Of a stretch of 64,000 nucleotides of DNA, positions 4,765 to 55,099 are shown piece after piece. Source of the stretch: a virus (taxonomy: Duplodnaviria; Heunggongvirae; Uroviricota; Caudoviricetes). Where the stretch lies: the IMG/VR virus record IMGVR_UViG_3300028833_002727. One strand, given 5' to 3'. The notes under the pieces were generated by a model that was given only the letters and a program-made list of their open reading frames with translations, did not search any database and had not been told where the DNA came from. Numbering within the stretch: position 1 is the first letter of the stretch; each line of letters begins with the position of its first letter. The position numbers were made by a program, and so were the translations under genes.

Positions 4765-5358
4765 TTACTTAAATAATTTATCAAAAATAAAGCGATTATC
4801 ATTTTTTGGTATAAGATTTAAAAATTCTTCTGGTAACACATCCGTGTACACAACCCATGGAAATGAACTTTTGTCTATTGTTTCAAAATTAGTTCTATTC
4901 CAACGATTGAAGAATTTCATATATGTATCGTGACACTCACTGCGAAGTTTATCATAAAACAGAATGTTGCCATTATTATATAAAACCCATGGAGCTGATT
5001 CAACATTGAGATATTCAAAAGGTATAGTTTTATGCGCCCAAGCATTTGGAGCGTCCATATATATGTCAAACAATTTCTTATTTTCTGGTGTATAATCGAG
5101 TGAAACAATAAATAAATTGTGTTCTTTATAAAATGGTTCATTTACCCAAAACCATATACAACTACCAACTTCACCATTATCAAAACACTCTAAGCCATTA
5201 CGATACACCATTCGACATAAATCAATAGCATTACCGCCTTGAGGTAGCCGTTTACCAGTAATTACGTGAATCAATTTTATATTGTTCAAATATTTTTCAA
5301 TACTTTCTCGTATCATTTTTGATAAACGCGATTTATTTATTTTAATTGCATTGCTCAT
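4765..5358 (-). CDS. Hypothetical protein carrying the shared leader; weak ART/Tpt1-like pattern
   Basis: N-terminus IKINKSRLSKMIRESIE, then LIHV...RNGL...CIWF. Confidence 0.7.
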   Translation of the reverse strand: MSNAIKINKSRLSKMIRESIEKYLNNIKLIHVITGKRLPQGGNAIDLCRMVYRNGLECFDNGEVGSCIWFWVNEPFYKEHNLFIVSLDYTPENKKLFDIYMDAPNAWAHKTIPFEYLNVESAPWVLYNNGNILFYDKLRSECHDTYMKFFNRWNRTNFETIDKSSFPWVVYTDVLPEEFLNLIPKNDNRFIFDKLFK

Positions 5359-6186
5359 TTAGTATGTGTTTTTACTTAATAATCCTTCGTTGGATATTTT
5401 TTTATTATACCAGTCTATCATGGTTTGTTTAATCAAAGCATTTCTTTTTACTTTATCACCGTAAATGCCTTTAAATTTATCTTGTAGTAGATAGAAAAGT
5501 TGTTTTGCTGTCATGTTCCTTGCTACCTCACCATCGGCACCTTTCATACCAACGATATGTACATTTTTCGGATAACCATCATCACCAATTATCGGCATAC
5601 TTGCACGAACAAAATTATCATCAAGATATTTTTTAATTAGGAGAACCTTATTTGGGTTTACAAAGTTACTGTTTTCATCCAATTTATCTTTGATGTAATT
5701 GATTTGTTCCTCCGTGAAGAATGCTTTCTTTGTTTCTGGTTGTTCAGATTCTTGTATCGCTTTCACTTGTTGTTCTGTGAAGAACACTTTTTTGCTAAAT
5801 AATGACTCATACAGCCTATCATCATTCTCATCGTCAAACTGTATTTGTGTTTGTGTATCTGGTTGTTTTTTAGTAATTTTGTAACCAGGAACTTTTTTTA
5901 CTTTATCTGTATCTCGCATACTAATTTCAATATCTTTACGTAGCATATCGTTTTTCCATTTGTGAAAACCAGCAATAATACTTAAATCGTTTAACCCGTC
6001 TAAATCTCTATATTGATATAATGGTACACCATATTGGTTCTTGTCAATAGGTTTAATACCGTTATTGGCAAGAATAGCATAGATAACATTCATTTTTGGT
6101 TTATTAAGTGTACCAACGTTGTTAATGCCGAGCACACGAATGAACTTTCTAATATATGGTTTAACGTATGTTGCTTTACTATACAT
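5359..6186 (-). CDS. Hypothetical protein with two internal copies of the leader motif
   Basis: KKVFFTEQQVKAIQE and KKAFFTEEQINYIKDKLDE; TATTTAT motif at 6207-6213 (-); first ATG at 6186. Confidence 0.75.
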   Translation of the reverse strand: MYSKATYVKPYIRKFIRVLGINNVGTLNKPKMNVIYAILANNGIKPIDKNQYGVPLYQYRDLDGLNDLSIIAGFHKWKNDMLRKDIEISMRDTDKVKKVPGYKITKKQPDTQTQIQFDDENDDRLYESLFSKKVFFTEQQVKAIQESEQPETKKAFFTEEQINYIKDKLDENSNFVNPNKVLLIKKYLDDNFVRASMPIIGDDGYPKNVHIVGMKGADGEVARNMTAKQLFYLLQDKFKGIYGDKVKRNALIKQTMIDWYNKKISNEGLLSKNTY

Positions 6187-6283
6187 AATTTTCAAATTAT
6201 TTTACTATAAATACTTTCTTTTGTATCATTTGTCAGTATTTATTACTAAAATAATGTTTTTATTCCAAAAGAAAATAGATAAG

Positions 6284-6667
6284 ATGAAACAGTTAAAAGA
6301 ACAAACAATTAGTTTTTTAAGTAATATAGAGGGCTATCATCAAACATTAAAGGAGTTACATTGGAGTGCTACGCATCACGCGTTACACATTTTAACAGAT
6401 GATATGGATGAAGAAGTATTAAAAGTCGAAGACTCAATTGCTGAATGTGTTATGGGTATTCTTGACACAAAATTTGGTATAAGAGACTTAAAAACAATGT
6501 TGCCAGAAGCAAAAACACTTGATGGCTTATTAAAAGAAATGAAAAAGGATTTAATAGAGTTTAAGGATTTTGTCGGCGATGACGCGGAATGCGCTGGATT
6601 ACAGAATATCTTGGACGACTATATGCAAAATATAAATAAATGGAATTATTTAAGAACATTAGTGTAA
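6284..6667 (+). CDS. Ferritin/Dps-like four-helix protein (DUF5856-like)
   Basis: LKELHWSATHHALHILTD...DSIAECVMG...LQNILDD...INKWNYL pattern; start moved to ATG 6284, downstream of the promoter motif at 6237. Confidence 0.75.
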   Translation: MKQLKEQTISFLSNIEGYHQTLKELHWSATHHALHILTDDMDEEVLKVEDSIAECVMGILDTKFGIRDLKTMLPEAKTLDGLLKEMKKDLIEFKDFVGDDAECAGLQNILDDYMQNINKWNYLRTLV

Positions 6668-6668
6668 C

Positions 6669-7448
6669 ATGAAAAAGCAAACAATCAAACTAAATGAATC
6701 TCGATTGAGACAAATGATACGAGAAATGCTATTGAAAGAGACATCATACAGGGATTTGGCAAAAATATATGGTTATGATCCTGATGATTACGGTGCAGAT
6801 AAATCTATTTTATCAATGGATGATGATTATTATTATAATGGCGAAATACCTTTTGAAGATGACATAGAAAAAGAGATTAATAACATTACTTATGATAAGT
6901 TTGTTGATATGGTGGATAAAATGCGCGGTTCTAATAAATGGGACACTTTAGAGGCGTTAATTCATTCAAATCCAATATTCAAAAAATGGTATGAAAAAAT
7001 GACTAAAGACGCCGAAAAAGATGTTTCATGGCGTGCTTTTGAAAGAAATAAAAAAGAACAACTACATGACTTCAAAAGAGATGTTGATTATTTTGCACGA
7101 CATGATGCTAATTTGAATGTTCACAATTATCCATACTATGATGATCAGCCTCACATTGATTGGGCTGGACATGAAAATCCAAAGATAACCGAATCTAAAT
7201 TGAGAAAGATTATTAAAGAAAGCATTAAAAAGACATTAAAAGAAAGTGTAATTAAATCCAGGGAATTTTTAGATGCTAGCAAAAATGTATGCTATGGTGA
7301 AGACGAGATGAGTTTTTTTGCTGCAAATTATTTAAGGAAAGAATTCAGACGTTTTCCTAATATTGCCCAAGCAAAAGCGTGTGCTCAAGAAATGCTTCAA
7401 CGAGAAAAACAACGAAGGGCAGAAGAAATGTCTGGGATAAGATATTAA
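6669..7448 (+). CDS. Hypothetical protein with two leader motifs (putative internal head protein)
   Basis: MKKQTIKLNESRLRQMIREMLLKE and internal KITESKLRKIIKESIKKTLKE. Confidence 0.75.
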   Translation: MKKQTIKLNESRLRQMIREMLLKETSYRDLAKIYGYDPDDYGADKSILSMDDDYYYNGEIPFEDDIEKEINNITYDKFVDMVDKMRGSNKWDTLEALIHSNPIFKKWYEKMTKDAEKDVSWRAFERNKKEQLHDFKRDVDYFARHDANLNVHNYPYYDDQPHIDWAGHENPKITESKLRKIIKESIKKTLKESVIKSREFLDASKNVCYGEDEMSFFAANYLRKEFRRFPNIAQAKACAQEMLQREKQRRAEEMSGIRY

Positions 7449-7480
7449 AGAGAGGTTAAAAACTTCTCTTTTTTCTTTTT
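7449..7480 (+). terminator. Intrinsic terminator
   Basis: agagaggtt-aaa-aacttctct followed by a T-rich tract. Confidence 0.75.
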
Positions 7481-7586
7481 AATTCTATATTTATTGTAAA
7501 TAGGTTAAACAAATGAAAAAACTAAATTTATTACCAGATATTAAAAAGAAAGAACAAATTGAATTATATAAACAAGGAGAAGCCCG

Positions 7587-8978: not shown

Positions 8979-9083
8979 AATAAAATAACGAATAATTAAG
9001 TAAAAAAATTTATAAATCATACACTTTTTGAATTATATGGAGTATTTATAGAAAAATAATGTTTGAAAAAACAATCTTATAAT

Positions 9084-11305: not shown

Positions 11306-11324
11306 TTAGTTGTTTGCATATAGG

Positions 11325-11401: not shown

Positions 11402-11737
11402 ATGAGTAGAAAAGTACATTTAACAGAATCTCAAGTAGAAGAGATTGTAAATAAATTGAATGAGGATAACATTGAAGAGGGTAATGAACTCAATGTAAAT
11501 TATCAAAAACCGCCAACTGGCGTTGCAAACGTTCAAGATATGACAAATCAAATGACTGCTGCTAAAAAAGCCGCTCCTGGCGCTAAAGTAAATATGGTTG
11601 TTTCAGGCGAGGATTTGAATGTGATGGAAAGTTGTTACACTAAAAAACAAATTAAAGAGGCAAAATTGCGCTATTTGACTGAACATTCAACTTCATACAG
11701 TAAAAAAGATTTCAAGAACAGATTTATTAAGAAGTAA
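11402..11737 (+). CDS. Small leader-bearing protein
   Basis: MSRKVHLTESQVEEIVNKLNE; TATTTAT at 11376. Confidence 0.8.
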   Translation: MSRKVHLTESQVEEIVNKLNEDNIEEGNELNVNYQKPPTGVANVQDMTNQMTAAKKAAPGAKVNMVVSGEDLNVMESCYTKKQIKEAKLRYLTEHSTSYSKKDFKNRFIKK

Positions 11738-19530: not shown

Positions 19531-19564
19531 ACAAGTATTTATTATAAAGAATATTACGTGAGAT

Positions 19565-20287
19565 ATGGATAGTAAAAAACAAATAGTAGAAATAAAAAAA
19601 GGGAACGTCGGTTCTGGCTTATTATTAGAAAATGACGGATATATGTCATTGGATATGCCAGAAAACAAAATGCTGAAAGAATCAGTTGAGGCATTCCAGG
19701 GTGGTATGGCACATGAGTTGCCACGTCCTTTTGTTGTTTCTGCCGTATTCCAAAAATACGGTATTCAAAACGCTAACGGACGTATATATCCAGAAAAGAT
19801 ATTGAAAAGAGAAGTTGAGAAATATCAACAGGCAATTAAAGAAAGACGCGCTTTCGGTTGTTTAAATCACCCGGATTCAAGTGATTTGGATTTGGAAAGA
19901 ATATGTCTTTTAATTACTGAACTTCATTGGGTAGGGCATACATTGGTTGGTAAAATGGAAATTCCTATTACTGAAGGTTTCCGCAGAGATGGTATTTGTT
20001 CTAATCTTGCGGATACTTTAGCACAATGGTTAATTAGTGGCTTGCGTGTTGGTGTATCAAGTAGAGCATTAGGCGGCGTACAGCAAATCGGCGGTACATT
20101 GGTTGTTGATGATACCCTTGAACTAATTTGTTGGGATGCTGTTGGACAACCATCAACTCCAGGTGCATACATTGATACAAACGACGATGCTTTAACACCA
20201 TTCATTGAATCAAAAGAAGCACCTGATGGTAAACAGGTTATTAAAGAGGACAAATTTAGTAAATTCGATGGGTGGTTAAACGATTAA
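19565..20287 (+). CDS. gp21: Prohead core protease (T4 gp21-like)
   Basis: NANGRIYP, G.LNHP (catalytic His), VGVSSRALG (catalytic Ser), WDAVGQPSTPGA. Confidence 0.95.
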   Translation: MDSKKQIVEIKKGNVGSGLLLENDGYMSLDMPENKMLKESVEAFQGGMAHELPRPFVVSAVFQKYGIQNANGRIYPEKILKREVEKYQQAIKERRAFGCLNHPDSSDLDLERICLLITELHWVGHTLVGKMEIPITEGFRRDGICSNLADTLAQWLISGLRVGVSSRALGGVQQIGGTLVVDDTLELICWDAVGQPSTPGAYIDTNDDALTPFIESKEAPDGKQVIKEDKFSKFDGWLND

Positions 20288-20324: not shown

Positions 20325-20349
20325 GTTTTAATGTAGTATTTATATGTAT

Positions 20350-20880
20350 ATGGATAATAAAAAATTAAAAAATATAATAAAAGAAAGTATCCTAGCAGAA
20401 CTTGGTGAGGATGGTAGCAAGTTTAAAGCAACTATTGAATGGGTACAAGATAGGTATAATAAAGCTAATCAAGAACTATTCAATGGGCGACTTGGCGCTT
20501 GTAATTTCAAGATTGCTGATTTAGGTGTTAGAACAAATGGAAGATTTACACTAGATACACCATCAAACTATCTTTATTACGATCCAAAAGCAAACAATCA
20601 TTTATACGTTGTCCCATATATTGGTGCTAGTAGAATTTACATCAATAAAGAGAATTTTGTTAAATATTGTAATCCAACCATTTTGCTGAATTCAAATCGT
20701 TCTGCTACTGAAGAATCAAGATATACAACATTGGTTCACGAAATGTGTCATTATTATACTTACATGTTCGGGTTTGTTCCAAAGCAAGCACATGGTAGAG
20801 AATTTAGAGATATTGCATCAATCATAGCATATAGAAGTAATGGCGCAATAACAGTGCAACGGCTTGCAAGCGCAGAATAA
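20350..20880 (+). CDS. SprT-like zinc metalloprotease with leader (5' part of an apparently split gene)
   Basis: YNKANQELFNGRL, LVHEMCHYY (HExxH), HGREF; leader KKLKNIIKESILAE. Confidence 0.85.
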   Translation: MDNKKLKNIIKESILAELGEDGSKFKATIEWVQDRYNKANQELFNGRLGACNFKIADLGVRTNGRFTLDTPSNYLYYDPKANNHLYVVPYIGASRIYINKENFVKYCNPTILLNSNRSATEESRYTTLVHEMCHYYTYMFGFVPKQAHGREFRDIASIIAYRSNGAITVQRLASAE

Positions 20881-21254: not shown

Positions 21255-23036
21255 ATGAACAAAGGTTTTGAAATAAATGGTACTATGGATTTAGGACACA
21301 TGAGTCCATTAGAACAACAAGAAAATGTTATGGAAAAGAAGATAAATGAACAAACGTTAAGACAAATAGTTCGTGAAAGTTTAAAAGAACTATCTAACCA
21401 AACAATTGGTAGTTATATGCGTGCAACAAAAAACCAAAGAAGGGATAGACAATATGATGCAGGCAAATGGCACGCGATAAAAACTGTTAACGACAAATAT
21501 AGTTTTTGTGTCACATTGGATCTTGGCGAGGAAGTATTATTCACCTTGGGTATGGACAATGAGGAATTCTTCATTCTTGTTGATGTAGATGAACATATGG
21601 AAAATAAAGAACCATATACTTTGAAGTTAATGCCTAACAATCCAAGACGTATGTTAGATGGTACTCCAATAACTGAAACAACGGTTGGGTATGTTATTGA
21701 TAACCTACGCGCAGGTGAAAGGATGAAACTTAAAGGCTTATGCCAATCCGCTATAGAATTGAATCAAGCATTAAGAGGTAAACAAGCACAAATTGCTGAA
21801 TCTGTTAAAGAGAAAGCGGTAAGTAAATCACAACAACGTTTTTTCGGCATGGTTGATGCATATAAAAAAGGTGAGTTGGATAATCCTTCAAAATCTGTTA
21901 AAGATGCAGCTGATGGTATGTCAATGAAACAGGTAAAAGATTTTGCGAAAACAAAACACAAAGGTTTACCAAACCATGTAGATGAATCTGTCCTTCGTAG
22001 TATAATTAGAGAAACATTAGAACAAACATGGGCTGACAGAGAACCAAAAGATAAAATGGATAACATACGTCTTCAACGTTACCAGGGGTTAGTTGAAATC
22101 GTTGAATACTATCTAAATCAATGCGAAGCTGGAAATGGTGTTGAATTGTCTGATAAACAACGTGAGCAACTTGAAGATGCTTGTAATAAACTATGTGTGT
22201 TTGGTGAAATTGGTGAAAAGTGGGCAAATCTTGGCAGAAGTATTTTGAGTGGAGATGAAGATGTTGCAGAAGAGAAACCATTTACTGATGAAAATGTTTA
22301 CACAATGGATGACTGGAGGCGTGATGGTTCACTCAAAGTACAGATAGGGCAGTTAATAGCACCTGAAGTATATTGGCAATTAAGAGATAGTGTACCGCCA
22401 ATGTCAGACGGAGGTTGTTTCCAACCTGGTGAAGCATACGACCATGACTGGAGAACTGGAAAAGCACTTTATCAAACATTCACGCGCGAGGGCGATAATT
22501 ATTATAGATACAAAGGATTACAGCCAGCAAGTAGGTGGGGATTAGAAGAAAGTGAATTAAAAAAAACAATAAGAGAAACAGTACAAATGCATTTAGTAAA
22601 CGTACTTGGTAAATATACACAAGGAAAAACATCAAGCAAAGAGGCAAACAAGGCTATCATGGATTTAGCAAATAGTTCAAATAAAAAAAAAGTGAATGAA
22701 GATGTTGATGCTCGTACTGCCGCATATTTCGACAAAATTAGAAATGGAGAATATGAGACTTTAGAGTTTGAAGGAAAAATATTTAGTGTCCCTCCACAGT
22801 TAAAACAAATAGCACAGAAAACTGCCGACAAATTTGGGGTTAGGGTATCAACATATGTAGGAGAAGACGAAAGAAAACTTTATTATGGCTTATTAGTTGA
22901 TGTTCCAGAAAATTGTGTTTTTCCAACATTATCCAATAACATTAGGTTATTTTTATTAGATTATGATATACATTATATAGGTTGGTACAAGAGAGGCATC
23001 TTTTTTTACCAGCAAATAATGAAAAAACCATACTAA
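21255..23036 (+). CDS. Modular protein with three leader motifs and a DUF3008-like module
   Basis: INEQTLRQIVRESLKE, VDESVLRSIIRETLE, LEESELKKTIRETV; KAVSKSQQRFFGMV..YKKGE...VKDFAKTKHKGLP. Confidence 0.8.
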   Translation: MNKGFEINGTMDLGHMSPLEQQENVMEKKINEQTLRQIVRESLKELSNQTIGSYMRATKNQRRDRQYDAGKWHAIKTVNDKYSFCVTLDLGEEVLFTLGMDNEEFFILVDVDEHMENKEPYTLKLMPNNPRRMLDGTPITETTVGYVIDNLRAGERMKLKGLCQSAIELNQALRGKQAQIAESVKEKAVSKSQQRFFGMVDAYKKGELDNPSKSVKDAADGMSMKQVKDFAKTKHKGLPNHVDESVLRSIIRETLEQTWADREPKDKMDNIRLQRYQGLVEIVEYYLNQCEAGNGVELSDKQREQLEDACNKLCVFGEIGEKWANLGRSILSGDEDVAEEKPFTDENVYTMDDWRRDGSLKVQIGQLIAPEVYWQLRDSVPPMSDGGCFQPGEAYDHDWRTGKALYQTFTREGDNYYRYKGLQPASRWGLEESELKKTIRETVQMHLVNVLGKYTQGKTSSKEANKAIMDLANSSNKKKVNEDVDARTAAYFDKIRNGEYETLEFEGKIFSVPPQLKQIAQKTADKFGVRVSTYVGEDERKLYYGLLVDVPENCVFPTLSNNIRLFLLDYDIHYIGWYKRGIFFYQQIMKKPY

Positions 23037-23220: not shown

Positions 23221-24753
23221 ATGAGTAAGAAAAACAATACGGCACAAAAATCTGCTCTTGAAATTGAACAACTTTCAAAGGCTTTGAGAGAAGGTACTGA
23301 AAAAACTTTACGTAATCTTCTCAAAGAAGCAATTGAAGACATCGTTGACAACGATGAGGAATCACAAGATGCAGAACCTATCGAAGATGATAGTTATGAG
23401 GTACAAGATGTCGAAACTGACGAAACTCCAAGTGATGCACCTGAAGAAGGTGAACCAGAGACATCTGGCGAAGGCGAGGAAGCATCTTCAGATGACGAAG
23501 GTGGAGCCGACGAATGGGGTGATTACGACGAGTTCAAGGTAGGAGATAATGAATATGATTTCACTGGCGTGGATGGAGATTTAGCTCTCAAGATTTATCA
23601 AGCACTATCAGATGACGACCAAATCAGTGTTAAGAAAGATGATGAAGGTAACATCAAGGTTAGTGATGGTGAAACTGGCGCAGGAGTAGTGATCGAACTA
23701 ACACCTGAAGATGGTGGTGCAGAGAATGGCGAAGAAGGTATTTCTGATAAACTTCCTGGTGACGAAGGTGCAGAAGGTGATGCTGATGGCGACATTGACA
23801 TTCAACTTGAACCAGACGCAGAAGGTGGTGCAGATGATGAAATCGAAATCGACTTAGGTGACGGTTTAGATGATGAACCATCTGATGATGAACTTAACGA
23901 AGATTTAGGTTACACTGACAGTTATCAGAAAGATGTTATGCCAGGTTTAAAAATGAACGAACCAGCAGATAAAAAAGCAACTTACAGTATGGATGATGGT
24001 GCTCCAGAAGGTAACAAAAAACCTTGGGCTGGTAAGCACACTGAAAAAGACTACAAAGAGACACATACTGATTTAGCAGAAGGTTGTGAAGGTGGTGCTT
24101 GCGAAAAAGAACTTGAGGAAGGTGCTATGAGCACATCAAGTCAATCAGTAGCAAAAGAAACACACACTCCAACATCTGAACCACGTGCTAACAACGCACG
24201 TCAAGTTGCAAAATTAGTTCACAATGGTGGTAAACAGTTAGACGAGGCAAAAGCATTAAAAATCCTTGAAGCAGCAAAGGCCATTCAAGCAGAAAATAAA
24301 CAAATTAAAGCCTTAGCAGGTAAGTTAAGAAAAAGTCTTATGGAGGCTGCAACTCTTAACATGAACTATGGTAAAATTGTTACTTTGTTAGTTAACGAAA
24401 GTACTACAAAGGCTGAGAAACAATCAATCATTGAACGTTTCAATAAAGTTACCACAGTTAAAGAAGGTGCAATTCTATTTGAATCAATCAAACGTGAATT
24501 GAACGAAAGTCACAAGAGTGATGCTGCAAACGTTCTAAACGAACAAATTTCAGCAGAGTCTTCAAGACAAATCAACGAAACTACATTCTATCAAACAAGT
24601 GCTAACAACAAGAGTATTTCTTTAATGGAAAGAATGGATAACCTAGGTAGAAACTACTCAAAAGGTGGCTACAAACCAATTAACGAAAATACTAGTAAAG
24701 GGCTTGACTTAATGAATAGAATTAGTGGACTCCAAACAAAAAGACAAGTATAA
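23221..24753 (+). CDS. Prohead core scaffolding protein (gp22-like by position)
   Basis: Very acidic middle region, coiled-coil C-terminus, many L/I-x-E sites, immediately upstream of the MCP. Confidence 0.75.
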   Translation: MSKKNNTAQKSALEIEQLSKALREGTEKTLRNLLKEAIEDIVDNDEESQDAEPIEDDSYEVQDVETDETPSDAPEEGEPETSGEGEEASSDDEGGADEWGDYDEFKVGDNEYDFTGVDGDLALKIYQALSDDDQISVKKDDEGNIKVSDGETGAGVVIELTPEDGGAENGEEGISDKLPGDEGAEGDADGDIDIQLEPDAEGGADDEIEIDLGDGLDDEPSDDELNEDLGYTDSYQKDVMPGLKMNEPADKKATYSMDDGAPEGNKKPWAGKHTEKDYKETHTDLAEGCEGGACEKELEEGAMSTSSQSVAKETHTPTSEPRANNARQVAKLVHNGGKQLDEAKALKILEAAKAIQAENKQIKALAGKLRKSLMEAATLNMNYGKIVTLLVNESTTKAEKQSIIERFNKVTTVKEGAILFESIKRELNESHKSDAANVLNEQISAESSRQINETTFYQTSANNKSISLMERMDNLGRNYSKGGYKPINENTSKGLDLMNRISGLQTKRQV

Positions 24754-33073: not shown

Positions 33074-33460
33074 ATGGCAAAAGAAGTTATTAAACTAAAA
33101 GAATCAGAATTAAGACAAATGGTTAGTGAGGTAATTCGCGAATCACTCGATGAAGGTTTCTGGAACCAAACAAAAAGCGCGGCAGGTACATTATTCGGAA
33201 AAGGAAACGGCAACCTTAAAACCAGACTTAGTGGCGCTAGAAAAAACTGGAGTTCACAAGGTGAATTAGATGATATTAACGGTTTACGTGCTCAATTAAC
33301 AAAGTTGTTAGATGACCGTAAAATCACTCCAGAAACAACAGTTGGACAATTAGTTGGTGGTAAATACAACAACAACAAATTTGGTACAATGTCAGGTATT
33401 GCAGCAAACAGACAAGCGCAAATCAAGCGTAGAGGTGGACAAAGTTACGAAGAAGAATAA
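33074..33460 (+). CDS. Small leader-bearing protein
   Basis: MAKEVIKLKESELRQMVSEVIRESLDEG; TATTTAT at 33027. Confidence 0.8.
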   Translation: MAKEVIKLKESELRQMVSEVIRESLDEGFWNQTKSAAGTLFGKGNGNLKTRLSGARKNWSSQGELDDINGLRAQLTKLLDDRKITPETTVGQLVGGKYNNNKFGTMSGIAANRQAQIKRRGGQSYEEE

Positions 33461-33461
33461 T

Positions 33462-33914
33462 TTATCTATCTATTAACCATAAAACTACTCTTTCCCACAT
33501 TTTGGGGAAGAGTTTTTTATTTATGTATTCAAACTTTGGATGTACCTCTATTTTTAATCCATAATCTTTCAATAAACGTCTACAGTGTTTTCTGAAATGT
33601 CTGCCATGCCCTAAAACACCATCAATACGTACACCTTCAATAGTTCTAACATACATGTGTATCATTTCATGTACTAATATTAAACGAAGAGTTTCATCAG
33701 TCCATCTTACACATCTTCCAATTCTGATTATACTGTATAAATTACCTTTACTATCACGTTGAGGTGTGTATGAACCGTAATCGCTGTTATTGACACCAAT
33801 TATATAAAAACGGCATTTATCAAGTTTACCACAAAAGTATTGCTTGTTATAAATGTCGAAGCGTCTCTTCAGTTCATCTTTAGTTAATGTAATATATTCT
33901 TGTTTGTCCGCCAT
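33462..33914 (-). CDS. SprT-like zinc metalloprotease (no leader)
   Basis: FDIYNKQYFCGKL, LVHEMIH, GHGRHF. Confidence 0.88.
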   Translation of the reverse strand: MADKQEYITLTKDELKRRFDIYNKQYFCGKLDKCRFYIIGVNNSDYGSYTPQRDSKGNLYSIIRIGRCVRWTDETLRLILVHEMIHMYVRTIEGVRIDGVLGHGRHFRKHCRRLLKDYGLKIEVHPKFEYINKKLFPKMWERVVLWLIDR

Positions 33915-36115: not shown

Positions 36116-37033
36116 ATGAAACAAATAGATATAAATAAAAGCAAAGATTTAATCGCTCTCAAAGAGAGTTTAAACAATGTCATAGATAAAAAAATCGCAC
36201 AACAACGTTTATCTGAAAAACTTAACGAAATGAAAAATTTATCTTTCGGCGAGTATAAATCATTGTATGATGACATTATCAATGATTTGAGTGATATTAA
36301 CCTTAATGAGAGTATGAAGAGTCTTGCTTCATATGTTAAATTGCTTAAAGAGAACAAGGCGATTAGAAGCGTATATAAAATTATCGACCATGTTGGCTTA
36401 GATACCACATCTGATCCAACCATTACAGCATATGCATGGGCAACTATCTTGGAGAGTGTTGATAAGAAACAACTAAAAGAAGGTGAACAAAAAATGTATA
36501 ACATATACAAACGCGCTTGCGGTATGGTTAATAATGTTACACCTGAACGCATTGATAACATATTAGCAGAATCCAAGTCAGTGAACGACGCTGTAAAATA
36601 TCTTACACATCACAGCAATAGTTCAAATATCAATAAATTGAATGAGCGTGTGAATAGTATCAACGTTTTGAGTAACCTTATAAAAGAAAACGCCACAATT
36701 GAAAAACCACAAATAGAAGTTAACAAAGAAAATTCTGATTTAATTTCAGAATTAAATAATGTTTTTGTTAATGAATATACTGAATGGGAAAACAAGGTAC
36801 TAAAAGATTTGTCAGTTTGTTATGCTTCTGGCGGTGATACAAGAGAATTGTTTGAACAATATAAAACAAGTTGCATTGAAGCTATTGATTCTATTGATGA
36901 TGAGGATTTAACAACGAAGTCAAGACTTCATGGTATGAAGCAACAGTTAATGGAAAAAGAATATAATAAAGAAACATTACAAGAGGATTTATTTAAACTC
37001 GCTGAATTAAAAGAAACTATCTTGGGTGAATAA
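36116..37033 (+). CDS. Hypothetical helical protein downstream of the portal
   Basis: Long ORF, TATTTAT at 36090, numerous L/I-x-E sites. Confidence 0.8.
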   Translation: MKQIDINKSKDLIALKESLNNVIDKKIAQQRLSEKLNEMKNLSFGEYKSLYDDIINDLSDINLNESMKSLASYVKLLKENKAIRSVYKIIDHVGLDTTSDPTITAYAWATILESVDKKQLKEGEQKMYNIYKRACGMVNNVTPERIDNILAESKSVNDAVKYLTHHSNSSNINKLNERVNSINVLSNLIKENATIEKPQIEVNKENSDLISELNNVFVNEYTEWENKVLKDLSVCYASGGDTRELFEQYKTSCIEAIDSIDDEDLTTKSRLHGMKQQLMEKEYNKETLQEDLFKLAELKETILGE

Positions 37034-37554
37034 TGAAAAAGGTTTTACTAACAGAGTCACAGATAAGACTAATCAATGAAGAAATAGATAGAAATGATTC
37101 TATTCAAAAATTGATTTTTGCTGAACCATCTGAAATTGAATTTGAGGAGGATGACAGTGTTGTACCTGCTGGCGTCCCTGTTAGTCGTGGTTATTGCCGT
37201 TTAATACCAATTATCGACGGTAAAAAAATAGATGAGAAATACGTAAAATTCACTGCTGAAGAAATCCGCGTAAAAAATCATGCTATTTATCAACTACACA
37301 TATACGTAGATTACAATATTAGACGTCTTGGTATTGCTGAAAAACTTTATACGGCATTTATATTGCAAGGCTACCCAGCGTGTTCATTATATTGTAATCG
37401 CGCATCATCATTCTACAGAGACAATGGCAGTGAAATAAAATCTGACGAGGCAATTGATAATTTGTGGAATAAATTGGCACAGAATCCGCAAATATCTGTA
37501 AAACCCATGAAATATAACGGAGAACAAATTGGTGTGATTGGATTACGCAAATGA
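37033..37554 (+). CDS. GNAT-family acetyltransferase-like protein with leader
   Basis: MKKVLLTESQIRLINEE; HIYVDYNIRRLGIAEKLY (acetyl-CoA binding motif A); A..LWNKL. Confidence 0.75.
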   Translation: MKKVLLTESQIRLINEEIDRNDSIQKLIFAEPSEIEFEEDDSVVPAGVPVSRGYCRLIPIIDGKKIDEKYVKFTAEEIRVKNHAIYQLHIYVDYNIRRLGIAEKLYTAFILQGYPACSLYCNRASSFYRDNGSEIKSDEAIDNLWNKLAQNPQISVKPMKYNGEQIGVIGLRK

Positions 37555-38237
37555 AAAAGGTTTATTTAACAGAACAGCAGTTCAATTATATTCTTGAACA
37601 ACAAATGTTGAATGAGGGTATAATGAAATATTTATACCAACGTTTCTTCGGTAAATGTCAAAATACTGGTGAATTAGTACAACGAGTGTTTTACTGGATT
37701 GGCGCTGGTATTATAAGTTTTGCAATTGCTGTTGATATAATACAAAACGGTAGAGATACTGGTGTTTTATCAAATCAAGACGCTATTGAAGTTATTGATG
37801 CAATTGCACAAAAAGCCCCAGTCGAAGAATGGAAACCAATTTGTAACGACGCCGTTGTTACAGTATACAATGCAAAACCAGAACAATGTAACAAAGATGT
37901 AGAACATACAGCATCAATGTTTAACTTAAATCTTGATAGCGTTGGTGGACATAGAATTGTAGCACTTGAAAGAAGTTTTATGAAAGAATTTGGTTTGAAA
38001 TTCGGTGATGTAATTAAAATTGTTGGAACGCATAAAGGTTTACAGGATGGTGTATATCAAATACAAGATGTGATGAACAAAAGATTTGCTGGACAGCACA
38101 AAATTGATGTACTGGTTCCAGATAGTATAACTCACGGAGGAACATGGCCTGAACAATATGCAACAATATATGTGCTCAATGATAAAAACAATACACAGCA
38201 ATATTTGGATTTAATGGCTCCAGAATACAAAAGATGA
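37551..38237 (+). CDS. 3D-domain (MltA-like cell-wall hydrolase) protein with leader and a hydrophobic segment
   Basis: MKKVYLTEQQFNYILE; VTVYN...QC..D..HTAS...IVALER...FGDVIKI...IQDVMNKRF...KIDVLV. Confidence 0.75.
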   Translation: MKKVYLTEQQFNYILEQQMLNEGIMKYLYQRFFGKCQNTGELVQRVFYWIGAGIISFAIAVDIIQNGRDTGVLSNQDAIEVIDAIAQKAPVEEWKPICNDAVVTVYNAKPEQCNKDVEHTASMFNLNLDSVGGHRIVALERSFMKEFGLKFGDVIKIVGTHKGLQDGVYQIQDVMNKRFAGQHKIDVLVPDSITHGGTWPEQYATIYVLNDKNNTQQYLDLMAPEYKR

Positions 38238-38319
38238 TAAATTATACTAAATAATATAGAAAGTCGTTAGAAATGGCTAAAAACAGGCAATAAATAAACG
38301 TTAATAAATAATAAAGCAT

Positions 38320-38538
38320 ATGAAAGTAAAAGTATCAAAAGAAGAATTAAGAGAATGCGTAGAAGGCGCTATGTTACGTCTTGTTAAAGAAGGTAAATCT
38401 TTACGTAAATTCAAAGATAACGAAGATAAATTCGGCGGCAAGCAACCAAAGCACGGTAAATTAGATGGTAGAAAACCAGGTGATAGAAAACCAAAAGGTG
38501 GCGCCAACAGTAAACGCTGGGAAAATTATGAAGATTAA
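38320..38538 (+). CDS. Small basic protein with a leader-like N-terminus
   Basis: MKVKVSKEELRECVEGAMLRLVKEG followed by a K/R/G-rich tail. Confidence 0.7.
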   Translation: MKVKVSKEELRECVEGAMLRLVKEGKSLRKFKDNEDKFGGKQPKHGKLDGRKPGDRKPKGGANSKRWENYED

Positions 38539-38562
38539 GTAGGAAAAACTACATACCCCCAC

Positions 38563-38590
38563 TTGACTTTTCGAAAAAATTAGCTATATT
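38563..38590 (+). promoter_or_regulatory. Sigma70-like promoter TTGACT-N16-TATATT
   Basis: ttgacttttcgaaaaaattagctatatt; the first 11 bp are shared with 33978-33988. Confidence 0.55.
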
Positions 38591-38616
38591 AGGGATATAG
38601 TTAATTTTTTTTTATT

Positions 38617-39069
38617 ATGGAAGAACAAAAGAGAAAAAGGTTGACAAGTGAAAAGTCACTTCAACACGACACGTTTAAGTTAAAACTAGGTACAACAGAC
38701 AAGACTAATCCATTGGTTGTATACCTTGAAGGTGGTGTTTTTATTACACCTAATGAAGAAAAAGATAGTTATGTAAATGACGTAAAGGCAATTAAATATG
38801 GTTTAAAGAAAACAATCCGAGAGAATCTTTCTAACAATAATTTCTTTGTTAATGATTATATTTTGGAATTTCAGATTGCCGACAAGGGAATAAAAACGAA
38901 TAAAAAGAGTTTTCTAACGTTCGATTTGATGTTGAAACAGCCAGCAGGTAGAATTTTAAAACTGAATGATGTGAAGAAACATACCGAGCAAAATATATAC
39001 GAAATAGTTAATTCATTGGAGCAAAACATCGTGGAACACAACTTTTCTTTGTCAAAAACGAAGAAATAA
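38617..39069 (+). CDS. Hypothetical protein
   Basis: Clean ORF with its own promoter-like element. Confidence 0.8.
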   Translation: MEEQKRKRLTSEKSLQHDTFKLKLGTTDKTNPLVVYLEGGVFITPNEEKDSYVNDVKAIKYGLKKTIRENLSNNNFFVNDYILEFQIADKGIKTNKKSFLTFDLMLKQPAGRILKLNDVKKHTEQNIYEIVNSLEQNIVEHNFSLSKTKK

Positions 39070-39100
39070 GAGTATTTATAGTAAATAAATATGCTAGAAT

Positions 39101-39493
39101 ATGATTGATAACTTTTTCATAAAGAAAGATGCTACGCTTCCAACACTACGTTTGGAATTAGTATTAGATGGTAAATATGATTTCTTGAAAATATCACATT
39201 TTAACAACGCAATACAAAACGCGAATGTAACATTTTCAATGACAGATGAACACGATGTATTAAAAATTGCTGATGCACCATGTAGATTAGTACTTGTGGA
39301 TCAGGATACTTGTGATGAGAAATACATCATCGAGTATCTTTGGAAACCAAGAGATACTAAAAAAACTGGGCATTTTACTGGTAAGATTAAGATTGAGTTT
39401 ATGAGTGATATATATCAGGCTGGAGAGACGTACGAAGAAGGTACATACATCGGCCCAATATATGAGAAACTTGATATATTTGTTACTGATTAA
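39101..39493 (+). CDS. BppU-like (baseplate upper/Ig-like) structural protein
   Basis: FFIKKDATLPTLRLEL...NANVTFSM...Y.W...DT...G.F.G.I.IEF. Confidence 0.6.
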   Translation: MIDNFFIKKDATLPTLRLELVLDGKYDFLKISHFNNAIQNANVTFSMTDEHDVLKIADAPCRLVLVDQDTCDEKYIIEYLWKPRDTKKTGHFTGKIKIEFMSDIYQAGETYEEGTYIGPIYEKLDIFVTD

Positions 39494-40716: not shown

Positions 40717-42180
40717 ATGATAACAAGAACGTTTTTAGATAAAACAACAACAATTAAAAGAGGTACGTTAGATAACTTTGGTTTACATCCAATTTCATTT
40801 ATTGGATATGGCTCTGGCATCTATCGTTCTTTAATTCATTTTGATGTTGAGAATATCAAAAGATTGATTGAAGATAAAACATATGCTGACATTAGTAAAG
40901 TTACACACCATTTGATAATGAAAAATTGTGGATCAGTTGATACGCATGGTTTCTTTACAAAGGATGCGGCTCCAGAAATGCCAGGTATTAAAGAACGCGC
41001 TACATCATTTGATGTTATTTTGTTTAAAGTTAATAAACATTGGGATGAAGGTGTTGGTTTCGATAATATCAACGATTTTTGGGATACTGGTAAAGGCGTT
41101 GTATCAACTGACGGTGCAACATGGTATAACGCAACAACCGATACACAATGGGATGATGAAGGTATCTACCCATTAGATTTCATTGAATATGAATATGAAA
41201 AATACTTATGGTTAAAAGAACATCCAGATTATAGTGGTTCTACTTCAGGTGATACGAGTGGTATTACTGAAACTATAATTGTTGGAGCACAACATTTCGA
41301 CCATGGCAACGAGAATTTAGATGTTGATATTACTGATTATGTAAATAGTTTGATTTACGGTGAAGAAAACTATGGTTTATGTTTGGCATTTATTCCAGAC
41401 TTGGAAGCAACAAACAGGAAAATGACAGAATACGTTGGGTTCTTTAATAATAAGACAAATACCGTATTTGAACCTGTCGTTGAAACACGCTACAATTGTA
41501 AGATTTCAGATGATAGAATGACTTTCTATTTGGGAAAAAACAATAAACTATATTTGTATTCTTATATTGGTGGAAAACTTGAGAATTTAGACAACATACC
41601 TGAATGTGTTGTTGATGATTATACTTTACCTGTCGAACAAGAGAGTAAAGGTATATATGCTGCATATATTAACTTATCATCAAAAGATTACAAGAAAGAT
41701 ATGATTGTATATGATACGTGGAGTAAACTATCTTATAATGGAGAAGAACTAGATGATGTGGAACTTGAATTTGTTACGAAGCCAAAAGAAAATTTCTTCT
41801 CAGTATCAAGCGAAGTTTCAAAACCAAGAATATTGAATCCATTGATTTCTGGTATCAACGCAAATGAACAGTTAAATCGTGGCGAACAACGTGTAATAAA
41901 ATTGTATTTCAGAGAACCATACACTGGTAAGGATTACAATTTGGTTGATAATTGTCAATATCGTATCTACGTAAAAGATGGTGAGAGAGAAGTTACTATT
42001 GTTGATTGGGATGAAATTAACAAAATGAACACATGTAATTTGTTTACAATTAAAACAGATGAATTTGTGCCAGCAGATTATCATGTTGATGTACGCGCAC
42101 AATTTGGTGGCAGCATCAAGATATATAAAGATGAATTAAATTTCACTATCGTAAGTGATGTAAAGGAGATAAAATTATGA
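40717..42180 (+). CDS. Virion structural protein (DNRLRE/beta-sandwich-like)
   Basis: YRSLIHFD...WDEG.G...ATWYNA....W...G...QHFDHGNENLDVDIT..VN; tandem SGSTSGDTSGIT; TATTTAT at 40686. Confidence 0.65.
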   Translation: MITRTFLDKTTTIKRGTLDNFGLHPISFIGYGSGIYRSLIHFDVENIKRLIEDKTYADISKVTHHLIMKNCGSVDTHGFFTKDAAPEMPGIKERATSFDVILFKVNKHWDEGVGFDNINDFWDTGKGVVSTDGATWYNATTDTQWDDEGIYPLDFIEYEYEKYLWLKEHPDYSGSTSGDTSGITETIIVGAQHFDHGNENLDVDITDYVNSLIYGEENYGLCLAFIPDLEATNRKMTEYVGFFNNKTNTVFEPVVETRYNCKISDDRMTFYLGKNNKLYLYSYIGGKLENLDNIPECVVDDYTLPVEQESKGIYAAYINLSSKDYKKDMIVYDTWSKLSYNGEELDDVELEFVTKPKENFFSVSSEVSKPRILNPLISGINANEQLNRGEQRVIKLYFREPYTGKDYNLVDNCQYRIYVKDGEREVTIVDWDEINKMNTCNLFTIKTDEFVPADYHVDVRAQFGGSIKIYKDELNFTIVSDVKEIKL

Positions 42181-43046
42181 GAAAAATTATATTAACAGAA
42201 GGGCAATTAAAATATATTCTCAATAGCGGTTCAAAAACTCCTTTAAATGAACACGTAAATGAGATTTATAATGTTAATGCTGGTATTAAATTGATTGATG
42301 CACAGTGGGAAAGTCCAGATGATTTCTGGTATATCTATATCACTCAAAGAAAAAAGGATAATAGAGACACTTTTGTGAAGAACCATAACGCTAGCGGTAG
42401 TAAAACTTTTGGGGATAATTATATTGCATATGGTATAGTTCAAGGTAATACGAAAGAAGAAGCCATTGAATGTTTGAAAAACATTAAAATGAACATCAAC
42501 AGAGAATATTACAATAAAATTTCAAACAAAGGGAACACCGTAACATCTGTTGAGTCTACATCATTCCCAATTCAAGCAATTGTAATGTTATGTAATAGAT
42601 TTAACGCAAGATGCTACATGGCAGTAAACAAACGTTCTATGTCAGAAACTACAGGTTATGCTGATTCATTGAAACGTAGAGGTATGGAAAGAGGAAGAGA
42701 ATTCCAATTCGCTGCTGGTAGAAAAATGGTAAATAACGACCCAACAAGTGACTGGAAGAAGAAACGTCCATATGGTTTAATTGATTGCGACATAGACGAC
42801 CCACAAGCACAAAAAGAATTAGAAACTTTATTAGCACAAAACAATATACCTATTTTCGATAAATATCCATCACATGATGGTATGCACTACGTTCTAAATA
42901 GTAGAGATGCTGAACGTCTTGATTTTACGAGATTTGACACAGTATATAGGAAAGGAAATGCGGCACCAGGGCGAAGAAATAGCGACCCAATGGTACTATT
43001 CAAAGGTGACGCTTGTATTCTACTATATTCGGCTTGCGGATATTAA
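42177..43046 (+). CDS. Leader-bearing protein with AEP/prim-pol-like catalytic motifs
   Basis: MRKIILTEGQLKYIL...LNE; LIDCD and SHDGMHYV resemble AEP motifs I and II. Confidence 0.55.
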   Translation: MRKIILTEGQLKYILNSGSKTPLNEHVNEIYNVNAGIKLIDAQWESPDDFWYIYITQRKKDNRDTFVKNHNASGSKTFGDNYIAYGIVQGNTKEEAIECLKNIKMNINREYYNKISNKGNTVTSVESTSFPIQAIVMLCNRFNARCYMAVNKRSMSETTGYADSLKRRGMERGREFQFAAGRKMVNNDPTSDWKKKRPYGLIDCDIDDPQAQKELETLLAQNNIPIFDKYPSHDGMHYVLNSRDAERLDFTRFDTVYRKGNAAPGRRNSDPMVLFKGDACILLYSACGY

Positions 43047-50004: not shown

Positions 50005-50016
50005 ATTTTTGTCTAT

Positions 50017-52289: not shown

Positions 52290-52339
52290 TACAAATTATC
52301 TTTTTATCTTAATCTAGTGTTTTAAAATAAAAAGTAAAT

Positions 52340-52368
52340 AAAAAAACCACCTGAAAAGATGGTTTTTT
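52340..52368 (-). terminator. Intrinsic terminator
   Basis: aaaaaaccacct-gaaa-agatggtttttt. Confidence 0.75.
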
Positions 52369-52387
52369 CAAAATATTCGTTAAAAAC

Positions 52388-53026: not shown

Positions 53027-53028
53027 TT

Positions 53029-53847
53029 TTATACGTTATTTTCGTTATCTTTGTTATTTTCTTCTGTATTATCTTGTTTTAATTCTTCATCACCTTTATT
53101 CACTGGGCCGTTTAATGCTATGTTCTGATATGTTTGTTGTCTTTGTTGTGTATTATCAGTTTTTCCTGTCGTTATTGTAGCATTATCTGGATTTTGTTTA
53201 CTTATTGGTTTATCTGTTTGAACGTAGTTGTTATCACCAAAGTCAGTTGTTCTTGACATTTCTTCTGCTGATGCACCGTTTAACCAGTTTGCCATAGCAG
53301 GATTTCTTTGCCAGTTAGCAACGTTTCTAGCAACATAATCAGGTGTTGGTACACGTCTACTACGTTCAATATTTTTTTGTAAATCGTAGTATGGATTTTG
53401 TGCAACCTTTTGTGCGTGACGTTCTTGGTTATATTTCGACAAACCACCAGTTTCATATCTACGTTTTGCACCCGCATAATCAGCATTGATGTAAACAGTT
53501 GACATGGATTTATCTCCGTCAGGATTATATTCATCTAACGGAGGCTGTGGGATGTTTGTTTTTTTATTTATCGGCTTCCATGTTTCGAACTTATCCGTTC
53601 TAAATAATTTCCAATGCGGAACTTTCGTTTTTGTGTCACCAAATGGTTGATACGCACGAATTACTGGATTTCCTGCTTTTGATAAACCATACGCTACTGG
53701 CTGAATAATTCTCCAACCGCTTCCAGTTTCTTTTTCGTTCTCATCCGCAATGTAATTTACTTTTACTGGTTTCCTTTTTTTAATTGCAAGTTCGATACTT
53801 GAGACATCAACATCCTCAAATAATATTTGTTTTTGCGTATTTGCCAT
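53029..53847 (-). CDS. WYL-domain protein
   Basis: AIKKRKPVKVNY...WRIIQPVAYG.....VIRAYQ...WKLFRTDK. Confidence 0.8.
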   Translation of the reverse strand: MANTQKQILFEDVDVSSIELAIKKRKPVKVNYIADENEKETGSGWRIIQPVAYGLSKAGNPVIRAYQPFGDTKTKVPHWKLFRTDKFETWKPINKKTNIPQPPLDEYNPDGDKSMSTVYINADYAGAKRRYETGGLSKYNQERHAQKVAQNPYYDLQKNIERSRRVPTPDYVARNVANWQRNPAMANWLNGASAEEMSRTTDFGDNNYVQTDKPISKQNPDNATITTGKTDNTQQRQQTYQNIALNGPVNKGDEELKQDNTEENNKDNENNV

Positions 53848-53852
53848 TACAG

Positions 53853-54278
53853 TCAGTCAACCCAATATTGTCCTGGTACGCTTGTTGATGTGTCAACTGA
53901 GCCTGGTCCATATTCATTACCAGCATTATAAGGGTTCATACCACCAAACACTAAATAGTTACGCCCAGCGTCACCTTGAAATGCTTTGTCAACACCTTTT
54001 GTACCATCAATATCATATACGTTACCTGCACCACTATTGATGTCAGTGTTAACTGTTGTACCCATCATTGTTGATGTTGCATGTGTACCTTTCTTTGTTG
54101 GAATAGATAAATGTGATAAAGATGTACCAGTACCTTTACCTTTATTATCGCCATCTGCCAATGCATCTGGGTGTGCTGCTGAGTATGGAGTTGCCTCATC
54201 ATATGTGTAAGGGCTTTTAATGAATTCACTCGTTCTCTCATCTATCGCAATTCTTTCAAGTTCAGATTGTTTTGCCAT
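53853..54278 (-). CDS. Hypothetical Gly/Thr-rich protein
   Basis: Clean ORF; YSAAHPDALADGDNKGKGTG. Confidence 0.8.
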   Translation of the reverse strand: MAKQSELERIAIDERTSEFIKSPYTYDEATPYSAAHPDALADGDNKGKGTGTSLSHLSIPTKKGTHATSTMMGTTVNTDINSGAGNVYDIDGTKGVDKAFQGDAGRNYLVFGGMNPYNAGNEYGPGSVDTSTSVPGQYWVD

Positions 54279-54334
54279 TTCTAAAAATGTATTTATTTGT
54301 AAATTAGTTATTTTTTTTATTTTGTCAAGACTTA

Positions 54335-55099
54335 TTAGTTATTTTCATAATAAATCTTTGTATTTCCTTCTTTTCTATGCCCTTTTCCTGGGATTGCTGA
54401 TTTAGGCTGTTCTATACCAGTATTTGTATTACTATGCACATTACGCAACGAATCGCCTTGCATTTGCGCGCGTTTGATAAGGGAGTTGATAGCACCAGTT
54501 ATTTTTGTATTGGAACTATTCCCTAATTCATTGCGTAAACGATAAAGTGATGGTAAATCCATTTGTTCACCACTTCTTAAACGTTTCATTATATCATCAT
54601 GTTCACCATCTGGTGTTGCAAATGCTCTAACTTCATTAGGTAATGAATATAATTTTTTACCATCAAGTTCAGCATTACGTTCATTCAAGTGTTTTTGAAA
54701 TGGTTTAGTGCCAAAATATTTATTACAATTTTTATTTGAACACAAATACACTGGTTCACCTTTAATATACAAACCTACTTTGCTTCCACATTCAGGACAT
54801 ATTTCAGGAACTATTCCACCCTCATCATTTTTTACTATTTTTTTTTTATTGTTTTCATATAATGAGTAACCAGCACCACGTCTAGTCCATTGATTGTTTG
54901 CTATTTTGTTTTTAGCATAAGCATCTGCTGTTCTAGTGTCACCACCTGGTTCTGTTGGAATTACTTCACCGTCAGTTGCTGGAATTGAATCCACAGGGTA
55001 TTCACTACCAGTACTCGTGTTACTTAGGTAACCACCCATGGCGTCTTCACCAATGATGTGTTTTAATTGTTCACTTGTAAAATATACTTTCTTGCTCAT
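54335..55099 (-). CDS. Leader-bearing protein with a zinc-ribbon module
   Basis: MSKKVYFTSEQLKHIIGED; CPECG...YLCSNKNC flanked by LYE and LNE. Confidence 0.8.
   Translation of the reverse strand: MSKKVYFTSEQLKHIIGEDAMGGYLSNTSTGSEYPVDSIPATDGEVIPTEPGGDTRTADAYAKNKIANNQWTRRGAGYSLYENNKKKIVKNDEGGIVPEICPECGSKVGLYIKGEPVYLCSNKNCNKYFGTKPFQKHLNERNAELDGKKLYSLPNEVRAFATPDGEHDDIMKRLRSGEQMDLPSLYRLRNELGNSSNTKITGAINSLIKRAQMQGDSLRNVHSNTNTGIEQPKSAIPGKGHRKEGNTKIYYENN

Follow-up and report, generated by a model that had tools for sequence, protein, structure and literature searches.

A shared amphipathic leader on unrelated proteins of an uncultured T4-type jumbo phage, a candidate capsid-targeting propeptide

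The 64,000-nucleotide stretch of IMG/VR record IMGVR_UViG_3300028833_002727 comes from a tailed phage of the class Caudoviricetes and contains a series of genes whose products carry the same kind of short amphipathic peptide, here termed the leader, mostly at their N-termini. The question raised by this locus is what one leader does on so many different proteins. A preliminary description of the stretch had proposed a portable tag that loads proteins into the prohead and is then removed by a protease. By sequence comparison the leader is conserved at the protein level, N-terminal and placed ahead of unrelated proteins, and we consider, with a probability of about 0.6, that it is a capsid (prohead-core) targeting propeptide, an enlarged form of the load-then-clip tag of phage T4. 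The whole 64,000-nucleotide stretch is referred to as the window and corresponds to positions 40101-104100 of one 118,756-bp viral contig; coordinates are window-based unless marked as contig. The contig has a G+C content of about 33 % and a completeness of 34 % (CheckV). It is regarded as a fragment of a jumbo phage because a contig of 317,841 bp encodes a protein identical to that of open reading frame (ORF) 6669-7448, and one of 389,201 bp encodes a protein 81 % identical to that of ORF 37033-37554.

Several profiles of the leader were used. The first had 20 positions, was built from 15 copies taken by coordinates, and recovered six copies outside its training set at 7.1-15.5 bits; the highest control scores were 6.9 bits in 20 shuffled proteomes and 3.7 bits in the reversed proteome. 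Under leave-one-out scoring, 12 of the 15 seeds kept at least 6.9 bits. The second, clade-wide profile had 28 positions, was built from 74 copies of this and related phages, and detected 23 copies in 19 of the 133 contig ORFs, or about one protein in seven. The third model was trained solely on other contigs (external-only) and had a shuffle maximum of 8.2 bits. The leader has the form of an amphipathic helix of 19-24 residues, which starts with h-h-K-L-T/N-E (h, hydrophobic), has hydrophobic pairs at each 3-4 residues and ends in hydrophobic-x-Glu. Its consensus is K-[IV]-K-[LI]-[TNS]-E-[SE]-[QDE]-L-x-x-[ILM]-[IVL]-[KR]-[EK]-[IV]-[IL]-x-E. In four data sets with 112 copies in total, the leader begins at one of residues 1-8 in 78 cases, comes after an internal Met in 16 and is genuinely internal in 18.

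The top-scoring copy of the genome (25.0 bits) is an internal leader at residue 170 of ORF 6669-7448 (7176-7247, plus strand), where it separates two modules, and the same ORF has an N-terminal leader at 6681-6752 (plus strand, 20.7 bits; 17.2 bits external-only). Other N-terminal leaders on the plus strand belong to ORF 33074-33460 (33086-33157, 23.8 bits; 16.2 external-only), ORF 11402-11737 (11411-11482, 22.2 bits; 16.6 external-only; kept in the orthologue of relative G001), ORF 37551-38237 (37557-37628, 19.4 bits), the GNAT-like ORF 37033-37554 (37039-37110, 18.7 bits), ORF 42177-43046 (42183-42254, 15.8 bits) and the 72-residue basic ORF 38320-38538 (38323-38394, 15.1 bits), the last of which is also kept in the G001 orthologue and has a leave-one-out score of only 6.5 bits. 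In ORF 21255-23036 (plus strand), which matches DUF3008 at 2.5e-07, the leader follows Met26 (21333-21404, 16.6 bits), the alternatives being a real start at Met26 or an internal copy. The SprT-like protein of ORF 20344-20880 has a partial leader that consists of the second half only (20344-20403, plus strand, 9.9 bits). N-terminal leaders on the minus strand occur in the 197-residue ORF 4765-5358 (residues 4-27, positions 5278-5349; 16.6 bits with the clade-wide profile, 17.0 leave-one-out and 3.0 external-only) and in ORF 54335-55099 (55019-55090, 13.6 bits), where the leader is followed by a stretch rich in Gly, Ser, Thr and Pro. Two internal leaders in ORF 5359-6195 (residues 136 and 157, positions 5656-5790, minus strand) scored 10.5 and 15.2 bits. 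Eight further tagged genes lie elsewhere on the contig, outside the window.

Eleven of the 13 N-terminal sites named in the preliminary description are therefore real, with the partial copy at 20344 and the copy after Met26 at 21255 counted among them, and the pair within 5359-6195 was found as described. The two remaining sites, 11737 (-2.5 bits) and 29315 (-3.1 bits), scored below zero and were rejected. Profile scans of the contig ORFs placed no leader in the polymerase, helicase or glycosyltransferase ORFs, in agreement with the preliminary description, and the scan of this and related genomes that it had proposed as a check found further copies in both. The external-only model gave 16-20 bits to both copies of the 6669 protein, to the 11402 and 33074 copies and to one gene outside the window; five further copies reached only 7-8.4 bits, close to the shuffle maximum, and 21255, 5358 (minus), 38320 and 55099 (minus) had no significant score. 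Because these scores split among the window copies, the notion of one shared leader holds for a family and not for a single sequence: the set comprises two related subtypes, and its weakest members are linked to the others by within-genome similarity alone.

The proteins behind the leaders differ, as had been claimed. When the leaders were masked, only 1 of 171 pairs among 19 tagged proteins was related, namely two ART-PolyVal proteins. The tagged proteins have 72-704 residues and one to three modules. Within the window, Pfam matches were a SprT-like domain in the 20344 protein (1.6e-10, from residue 35), DUF3008 in the 21255 protein, a weak GNAT match in the 37033 protein and a weak zinc ribbon at residues 101-125 of ORF 54335-55099 (DNA_ligase_ZBD, 9.5e-05, below its cut-off). 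The SprT-like, GNAT and zinc ribbon labels of the preliminary description were thus recovered, the latter two weakly, and its '3D' and 'ART-like' labels were not; the AEP-like label of the 42177 cargo is an Atlas lead only. ART-PolyVal was found by Pfam only on tagged genes outside the window, where it occurs twice beside InPase and GP88. Tagged genes of relatives carry InPase and a SAM-lyase (S-adenosylmethionine lyase) family domain; the latter (PF23780, 3.8e-07) is in the leader-tagged gene at 199-876 (minus strand) of locus L118, from the complete 363-kb relative G003. Phage SAM lyases are anti-restriction enzymes. No PHROGs match was obtained for 17 of 20 tagged or neighbouring proteins searched. 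The suggestion that any domain can be recruited as cargo is an extrapolation.

A second SprT-like gene, 33462-33914 (minus strand), is embedded in the head module on the opposite strand, has no leader and is preceded 22 nucleotides upstream by a host-type TATCTTTG box. Its domain starts about 19 residues earlier than that of the tagged 20344 paralogue, for which it serves as a natural leaderless control.

The head genes of the contig are T4-type. The major capsid protein is of the gp23 type (24792-26672, plus strand; phrog_138, 1.7e-66) and has a predicted propeptide of residues 1-61 (24792-24974). Its closest GenBank relatives, from an uncultured 484-kb phage, Flavobacterium phage immuto and Microcystis phage Mel-JY01, are only 39-42 % identical. 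The portal gene is at 34054-36084 (plus strand; phrog_213, 2.7e-48), with leader genes immediately downstream, and the large terminase gene at 27204-29123 (minus strand). The prohead (head maturation) protease gene at 19565-20287 (plus strand), where the preliminary description had placed the protease, encodes a member of the T4 gp21 family, with matches to Pfam Peptidase_S77 (PF03420, 6.2e-20) and phrog_207. Aligned with T4 gp21, the protease retains the L-N-H-P and G-V-S-S-R motifs, which hold the catalytic His and Ser in gp21, and has I-V-E in place of the gp21 site L-I-E9 (PMC9026906). A scaffold-like acidic protein of 510 residues is encoded at 23221-24753 (plus strand), directly upstream of the capsid gene; it has a leader-like helix at residues 22-45 and, between its N- and C-terminal helical parts, a stretch of about 250 residues rich in Asp, Glu and Gly.

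The L-S-E at capsid residues 59-61, which the preliminary description had placed at the propeptide position equivalent to that of T4, does lie there. In a local alignment of six capsid N-termini, M-L-S-E61 aligned exactly with the T4 gp23 cleavage site F-L-T-E65. In four relatives the position of the T4 site is occupied by [LIV]-x-E with Ala after it, A or S is next across this phage and its relatives, and the Glu of E61 does not vary among five related capsid proteins. Because the capsid cleavage site is conserved at the T4-equivalent position, the specificity of the protease has probably been retained from T4. The leaders carry hydrophobic-x-Glu sites as well, as had been noted: one ends in columns 13-26 in 98 of 109 copies (90 %, against 31 % expected), an enrichment that is partly circular. 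The Glu is at columns 14/15 in 41 % of copies, at column 19 in 39 % and at column 23 in 16 %, and a further hydrophobic-x-Glu ends at column 6 in 73 %.

A promoter-like box links the tagged genes with the head genes. TATTTAT occurs upstream, in sense orientation, of 31 genes against 5.8 expected, and 20 of the 40 genome copies of GTATTTAT are within 70 nucleotides upstream of a start codon in the sense orientation, a space that makes up 3.9 % of strand space. The extended box reads about G-TATTTAT-[TA]-n-T-[TA]-A-A-G-A-A, lies 15-50 nucleotides before start codons and, read in the same sense, is unlike the T4 late promoter TATAAATA. The window has about 25 box sites. Examples of G-TATTTAT-[TA] on the plus strand are 19535-19543 and the sites starting at 6236, 11375, 20336, 23123, 33026, 34019, 36089 and 40685, and on the minus strand 6206-6214 and 55121-55129. 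The box precedes the protease, scaffold, terminase, portal and other structural genes. Units headed by it contain 18 of 20 tagged genes and 54 of 113 others (Fisher p=4e-4). A nineteenth tagged gene, 6669, follows a mis-called gene with a box at 6236-6244, so that the claim of leader genes in operons with TATTTAT stands for 19 of 20. The mis-called ORF is the listed 182-residue ORF 6119-6667 (plus strand) with a TTG start; its real start is near 6285, behind the box, which makes 6669 the second gene of that unit. The 3' two thirds of this ORF encode a helical protein of about 125 residues, Dps/ferritin-like by eye.

We infer that the box-headed tagged genes are late genes. The tagged genes outside the window are grouped in box-bearing islands on the plus strand, set in an early region of the minus strand. 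Tagged genes also directly flank the protease, scaffold and portal genes, the place that gp67 and gp68 occupy in T4.

The leader resembles the N-terminus of the scaffold-like protein. The helix at residues 22-45 scored 7.3 bits here and 11.3 bits in the G001 orthologue, and the second half of the motif was found near residue 41 in 46 of 74 clade scaffolds, compared with frequencies of 0.9 % in other ORFs and 8 % in the tagged proteins. As the 46 scaffolds are orthologous, they represent one conserved feature and not 46 separate events. Since clade scaffolds carry the second half of the leader motif, the comparison suggests that cargo may join the core by imitating the scaffold. An AlphaFold model of the 37033 protein (mean predicted local distance difference test score 83.5) has a helix at residues 8-29 and an alpha/beta domain from residue 35, and Foldseek returned weak GNAT matches (template modelling score 0.3-0.4) and 'helix linker' fusion proteins. 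In this GNAT-like family of 33 homologues, the leader is kept in each member with a full N-terminus. The model fits a leader that projects as a helix.

The leader is found well beyond this contig. A 90.9-kb relative with a 69 %-identical protease has 13 copies, some on orthologues and some on proteins without a counterpart here. Nucleotidyltransferase 7587 has no leader, and its homologue in that relative has one about 200 residues before the shared domain. Each of three complete relatives (312-363 kb) contains 9-14 copies. The canonical leader is present in eighty IMG/VR loci around related capsid genes and in other phages whose capsid proteins are 42-70 % identical, and tag-carrying phages measure 280-412 kb. 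In the uncultured 484-kb phage, some 25 small genes with a variant leader are packed among those for the portal, protease and capsid and extend past them; immuto shows a single weak copy where a gene begins. Profile scans found no leader in T4, crAss001, the Microcystis T4-like phage Mel-JY01 or an uncultured 595-kb phage. A 32-column profile searched against 1.84 billion representative proteins (E<=0.001) matched 1,215 protein clusters, and an exact degenerate DNA pattern of the canonical form, scanned over IMG/VR, matched 103 stretches. In an S77 search of these records, Peptidase_S77 was present in 14 of 26 larger tag-carrying ones and in 7 of 8 among those at least 90 % complete. Residues 1-40 of the 6669 protein matched only themselves in a set of 5.8 billion proteins, where the region is too short for significance. 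No description of the leader was found in the literature, in which the motif letters matched only unrelated papers on RiPPs, peptides made on ribosomes and then modified after translation.

A different short leader, M-R/K-L-K-x-h-L-x-E, occurs on about six paralogous genes of 250-280 codons at 177696-183575 of phage LR756508 (loci L016, L020 and L021). Their products have Y-R-G/A-S/T motifs of ADP-ribosyltransferase-like appearance, and this leader could represent a second class of tag there.

Many matching proteins carry more than one copy of the leader. Among the best 149 cluster representatives, 118 had two copies and 9 had three; the first copy falls in the opening eight residues of 128 of 147 representatives, and copies are spaced at a median of 124.5 residues. 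N/S-K-K often stands before internal copies, in place of the M-K-K of N-terminal ones. Modules recur singly and in new combinations. The C-terminal module of ORF 5359-6195, which follows its two leaders, is a stand-alone leader-plus-domain ORF in locus L208; a homologue of the 6669 protein (P0128) keeps module 1 and has a different module after its own internal leader; and another protein has, between two of its leaders, a module also present in the gene at contig position 5312. Because of this recurrence behind leaders, the unit of evolution seems to be leader plus domain. Under a cleavage model the multi-leader proteins would be polyproteins. It is somewhat short of an even chance that cassettes of a leader and a domain of about 100 residues are shuffled, duplicated and fused in uncultured T4-type phages of 280-412 kb, and that the clusters, at least 1,200 in number, catalogue proteins that enter the head through scaffold mimicry, are cut apart at each leader and are injected.

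If the leader is a capsid-targeting propeptide, the steps would be as follows. Late in infection, the helix would dock the tagged protein onto the assembling scaffold core, possibly in imitation of the N-terminal helix of the scaffold protein, and the gp23-type shell would close around the core. The S77 protease would then cut after Glu and free the cargo inside the head, and where leaders lie between modules it would cut the polyproteins apart. The cargo, with ADP-ribosyltransferase, pyrophosphatase, SprT-like protease and acetyltransferase-like domains here and a SAM lyase in a relative, would leave with the DNA and act in the next host. Each indirect prediction that could be checked against the sequences agrees with this capsid-tag reading.

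T4 offers the closest precedent. Its head-core proteins gp22, gp24, gp21, gp67, gp68, ipII and ipIII begin with 6-10 residues ending in h-x-E, and ipII and ipIII share an identical stretch over residues 1-10. In T4-like phages such a capsid-targeting sequence (CTS) has already been proposed as a general loading route for varied proteins (PMC9026906, PMC3012670), and T4 Alt is a packaged ADP-ribosyltransferase (PMC9026906), which the cargo families ART-PolyVal and InPase echo. As in T4, a short N-terminal peptide ending in hydrophobic-x-Glu is found on unrelated proteins, in a phage that encodes an S77 protease and whose gp23-type capsid protein keeps the cleavage site in the same place; the tagged genes adjoin the portal, protease and scaffold genes, an ADP-ribosyltransferase is among the cargo, and the scaffold N-terminus resembles the tag. 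The likeness to the T4 CTS is one of plan and not of sequence homology, as the leader profiles match nothing in the T4 genome; the T4 gp24 propeptide resembles the leader minus one helical turn, by eye only. The tag here differs in its length (19-24 residues against 10 in the T4 CTS) and in its number: T4 has a handful of tagged proteins, and here a third of a genome encodes no fewer than 19. Unlike the T4 internal proteins, the tagged proteins of this clade frequently have internal copies, giving tag-plus-domain cassettes and putative polyproteins.

Several observations weigh against a cleaved capsid tag. The h-x-E enrichment is circular in so far as the profile itself selects for such sites, which Glu-rich amphipathic helices also yield easily. 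L-T-E at columns 4-6 matches the cutting rule too, and with h-x-E at several columns the cut site within the leader cannot be named. Weak leader copies are not diagnostic, as a ClpX-like ATPase just upstream of the window (contig 38219-39313, minus strand) scored 8.1 bits with the external-only model at residue 258, in a generic L-T-E-x-x-L helix. The box also stands upstream of non-virion genes, for example that of the DNA polymerase, and some tagged proteins, such as one of 594 residues beside the tail genes, may not be head proteins. One tag-carrying record that is 95 % complete has no S77 protease. No cultured carrier of the canonical tag was found when two clade tag proteins were compared by tblastn with 50,697 GenBank phages.

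The helix might instead have a function unrelated to the virion, as a handle for a chaperone, a modifying enzyme, a host target or nucleic acid in a fast-evolving family of late genes. Nothing ties the tagged proteins physically to heads, several of their genes are far from the head module (contig 5.3-8.4, 16.7 and 28-32 kb), and generic L-T-E-x-x-L helices of the ClpX kind occur in unrelated proteins. The distant genes, however, are opposite-strand islands that carry the promoter box of the head genes, and the dispersed ip genes of T4 are a precedent for such an arrangement; the tag co-occurs with S77 phages and is absent from the control phages, and it resembles the scaffold and the T4 propeptides. 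A role outside the virion is unlikely, though it keeps some weight.

Another explanation retains assembly and dispenses with the cut. The helix would be a docking or oligomerisation element that binds the scaffold core, or another late assembly, and is not removed, and h-x-E would be a by-product of an acidic amphipathic helix. Such a permanent helix would suit the scaffold, which has a similar one, and the varying position of the leader Glu among columns 15, 19 and 23. It would also suit the GNAT-like protein, in which the helix continues unbroken into the residues that follow and both are strongly conserved as one long helix, which could belong to the fold. Against it, the capsid h-x-E is conserved at the T4-equivalent position, T4 head-core N-termini share the plan and are cut (PMC9026906), and many proteins have unrelated or low-complexity sequence after the leader. 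We judge uncleaved docking to be rather improbable. It is a very faint prospect that the similarity arose by chance, from biased codon use where genes begin, or from a DNA element repeated within the 5' coding region, such as a site of recombination or regulation: the genome is AT-rich with many M-K-K starts, and sites 11737 and 29315 are indeed chance, but the shuffled and reversed proteomes scored below the observed copies, the same peptide recurs at 42-70 % capsid identity and in the 1,215 clusters, and a DNA-level repeat was rejected because codon sharing at identical residues (54 %, against 46 % expected; third positions 41 % identical) is near the expectation from codon usage, so that this explanation is already refuted for the core set and stands only for the weakest copies.

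Two further features are recorded. TAnnTTTG boxes, of a type known from Bacteroidota promoters, are found on early-looking genes, and from these we infer a Bacteroidota host. The adjacent ORFs 1098-1445 and 1474-2166 (plus strand) are nearly alike over their first 50 or so residues and then diverge; this shared start is not the leader and may be a common attachment domain of the tail-fibre type.

Other systems share parts of the proposed scheme of loading and cutting. In phiKZ, 201phi2-1 and SPN3US, many of the proteins inside the head undergo processing at x-x-Glu sites by a protease related to gp21 (PMC5694885, PMC10052503). These are likewise jumbo phages, whose paralogues sometimes begin with identical N-termini and whose propeptides may contain several cut sites. 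Their propeptides, however, are mostly longer than 100 residues, have the motif A/S/G-x-E and belong to another capsid lineage, and processing there has been shown by mass spectrometry. The polyvalent proteins of phages and conjugative elements, reportedly described by Iyer et al. in 2017 and said to be the source of the Pfam families ART-PolyVal and InPase, carry similar effector-type domains (ART-PolyVal, InPase and zincin/SprT-like) and were proposed to enter the host with the DNA. They differ in being one very long multi-effector chain, a feature that the tagged proteins lack; here single or double modules each have their own leader, and the domain families alone are shared. To our knowledge, no comparable leader has been described for polyvalent proteins. 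The encapsulation peptides of bacterial microcompartments and the cargo-loading peptides of encapsulins are short, portable amphipathic helices that direct loading into a shell. In contrast to the tag as proposed here, they serve unrelated shells, are not removed by a maturation protease and deliver nothing to another cell.

The concept of a cleavable loading tag is known from T4, and what is new is a different and longer tag, the scale of its use, the cassette and polyprotein form and the clade of uncultured jumbo phages that carries it. If the leader is a capsid-targeting propeptide, the trick of T4 would scale to dozens of cargo proteins and to polyproteins, and a second, longer tag would be at hand for loading foreign proteins into phage heads; the likeness to the N-terminal helix of the scaffold is a testable idea of how loading works. 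A sequence profile would then list the proteins that giant uncultured phages bring into the cell before any gene is expressed, and, if the cassette reading is true as well, the effectors injected by phages that have not been grown could be listed by scanning for a single motif. The tagged proteins would be the likeliest source of new anti-restriction and host-takeover enzymes, and their domains already include a SAM lyase, ADP-ribosyltransferases and a pyrophosphatase.

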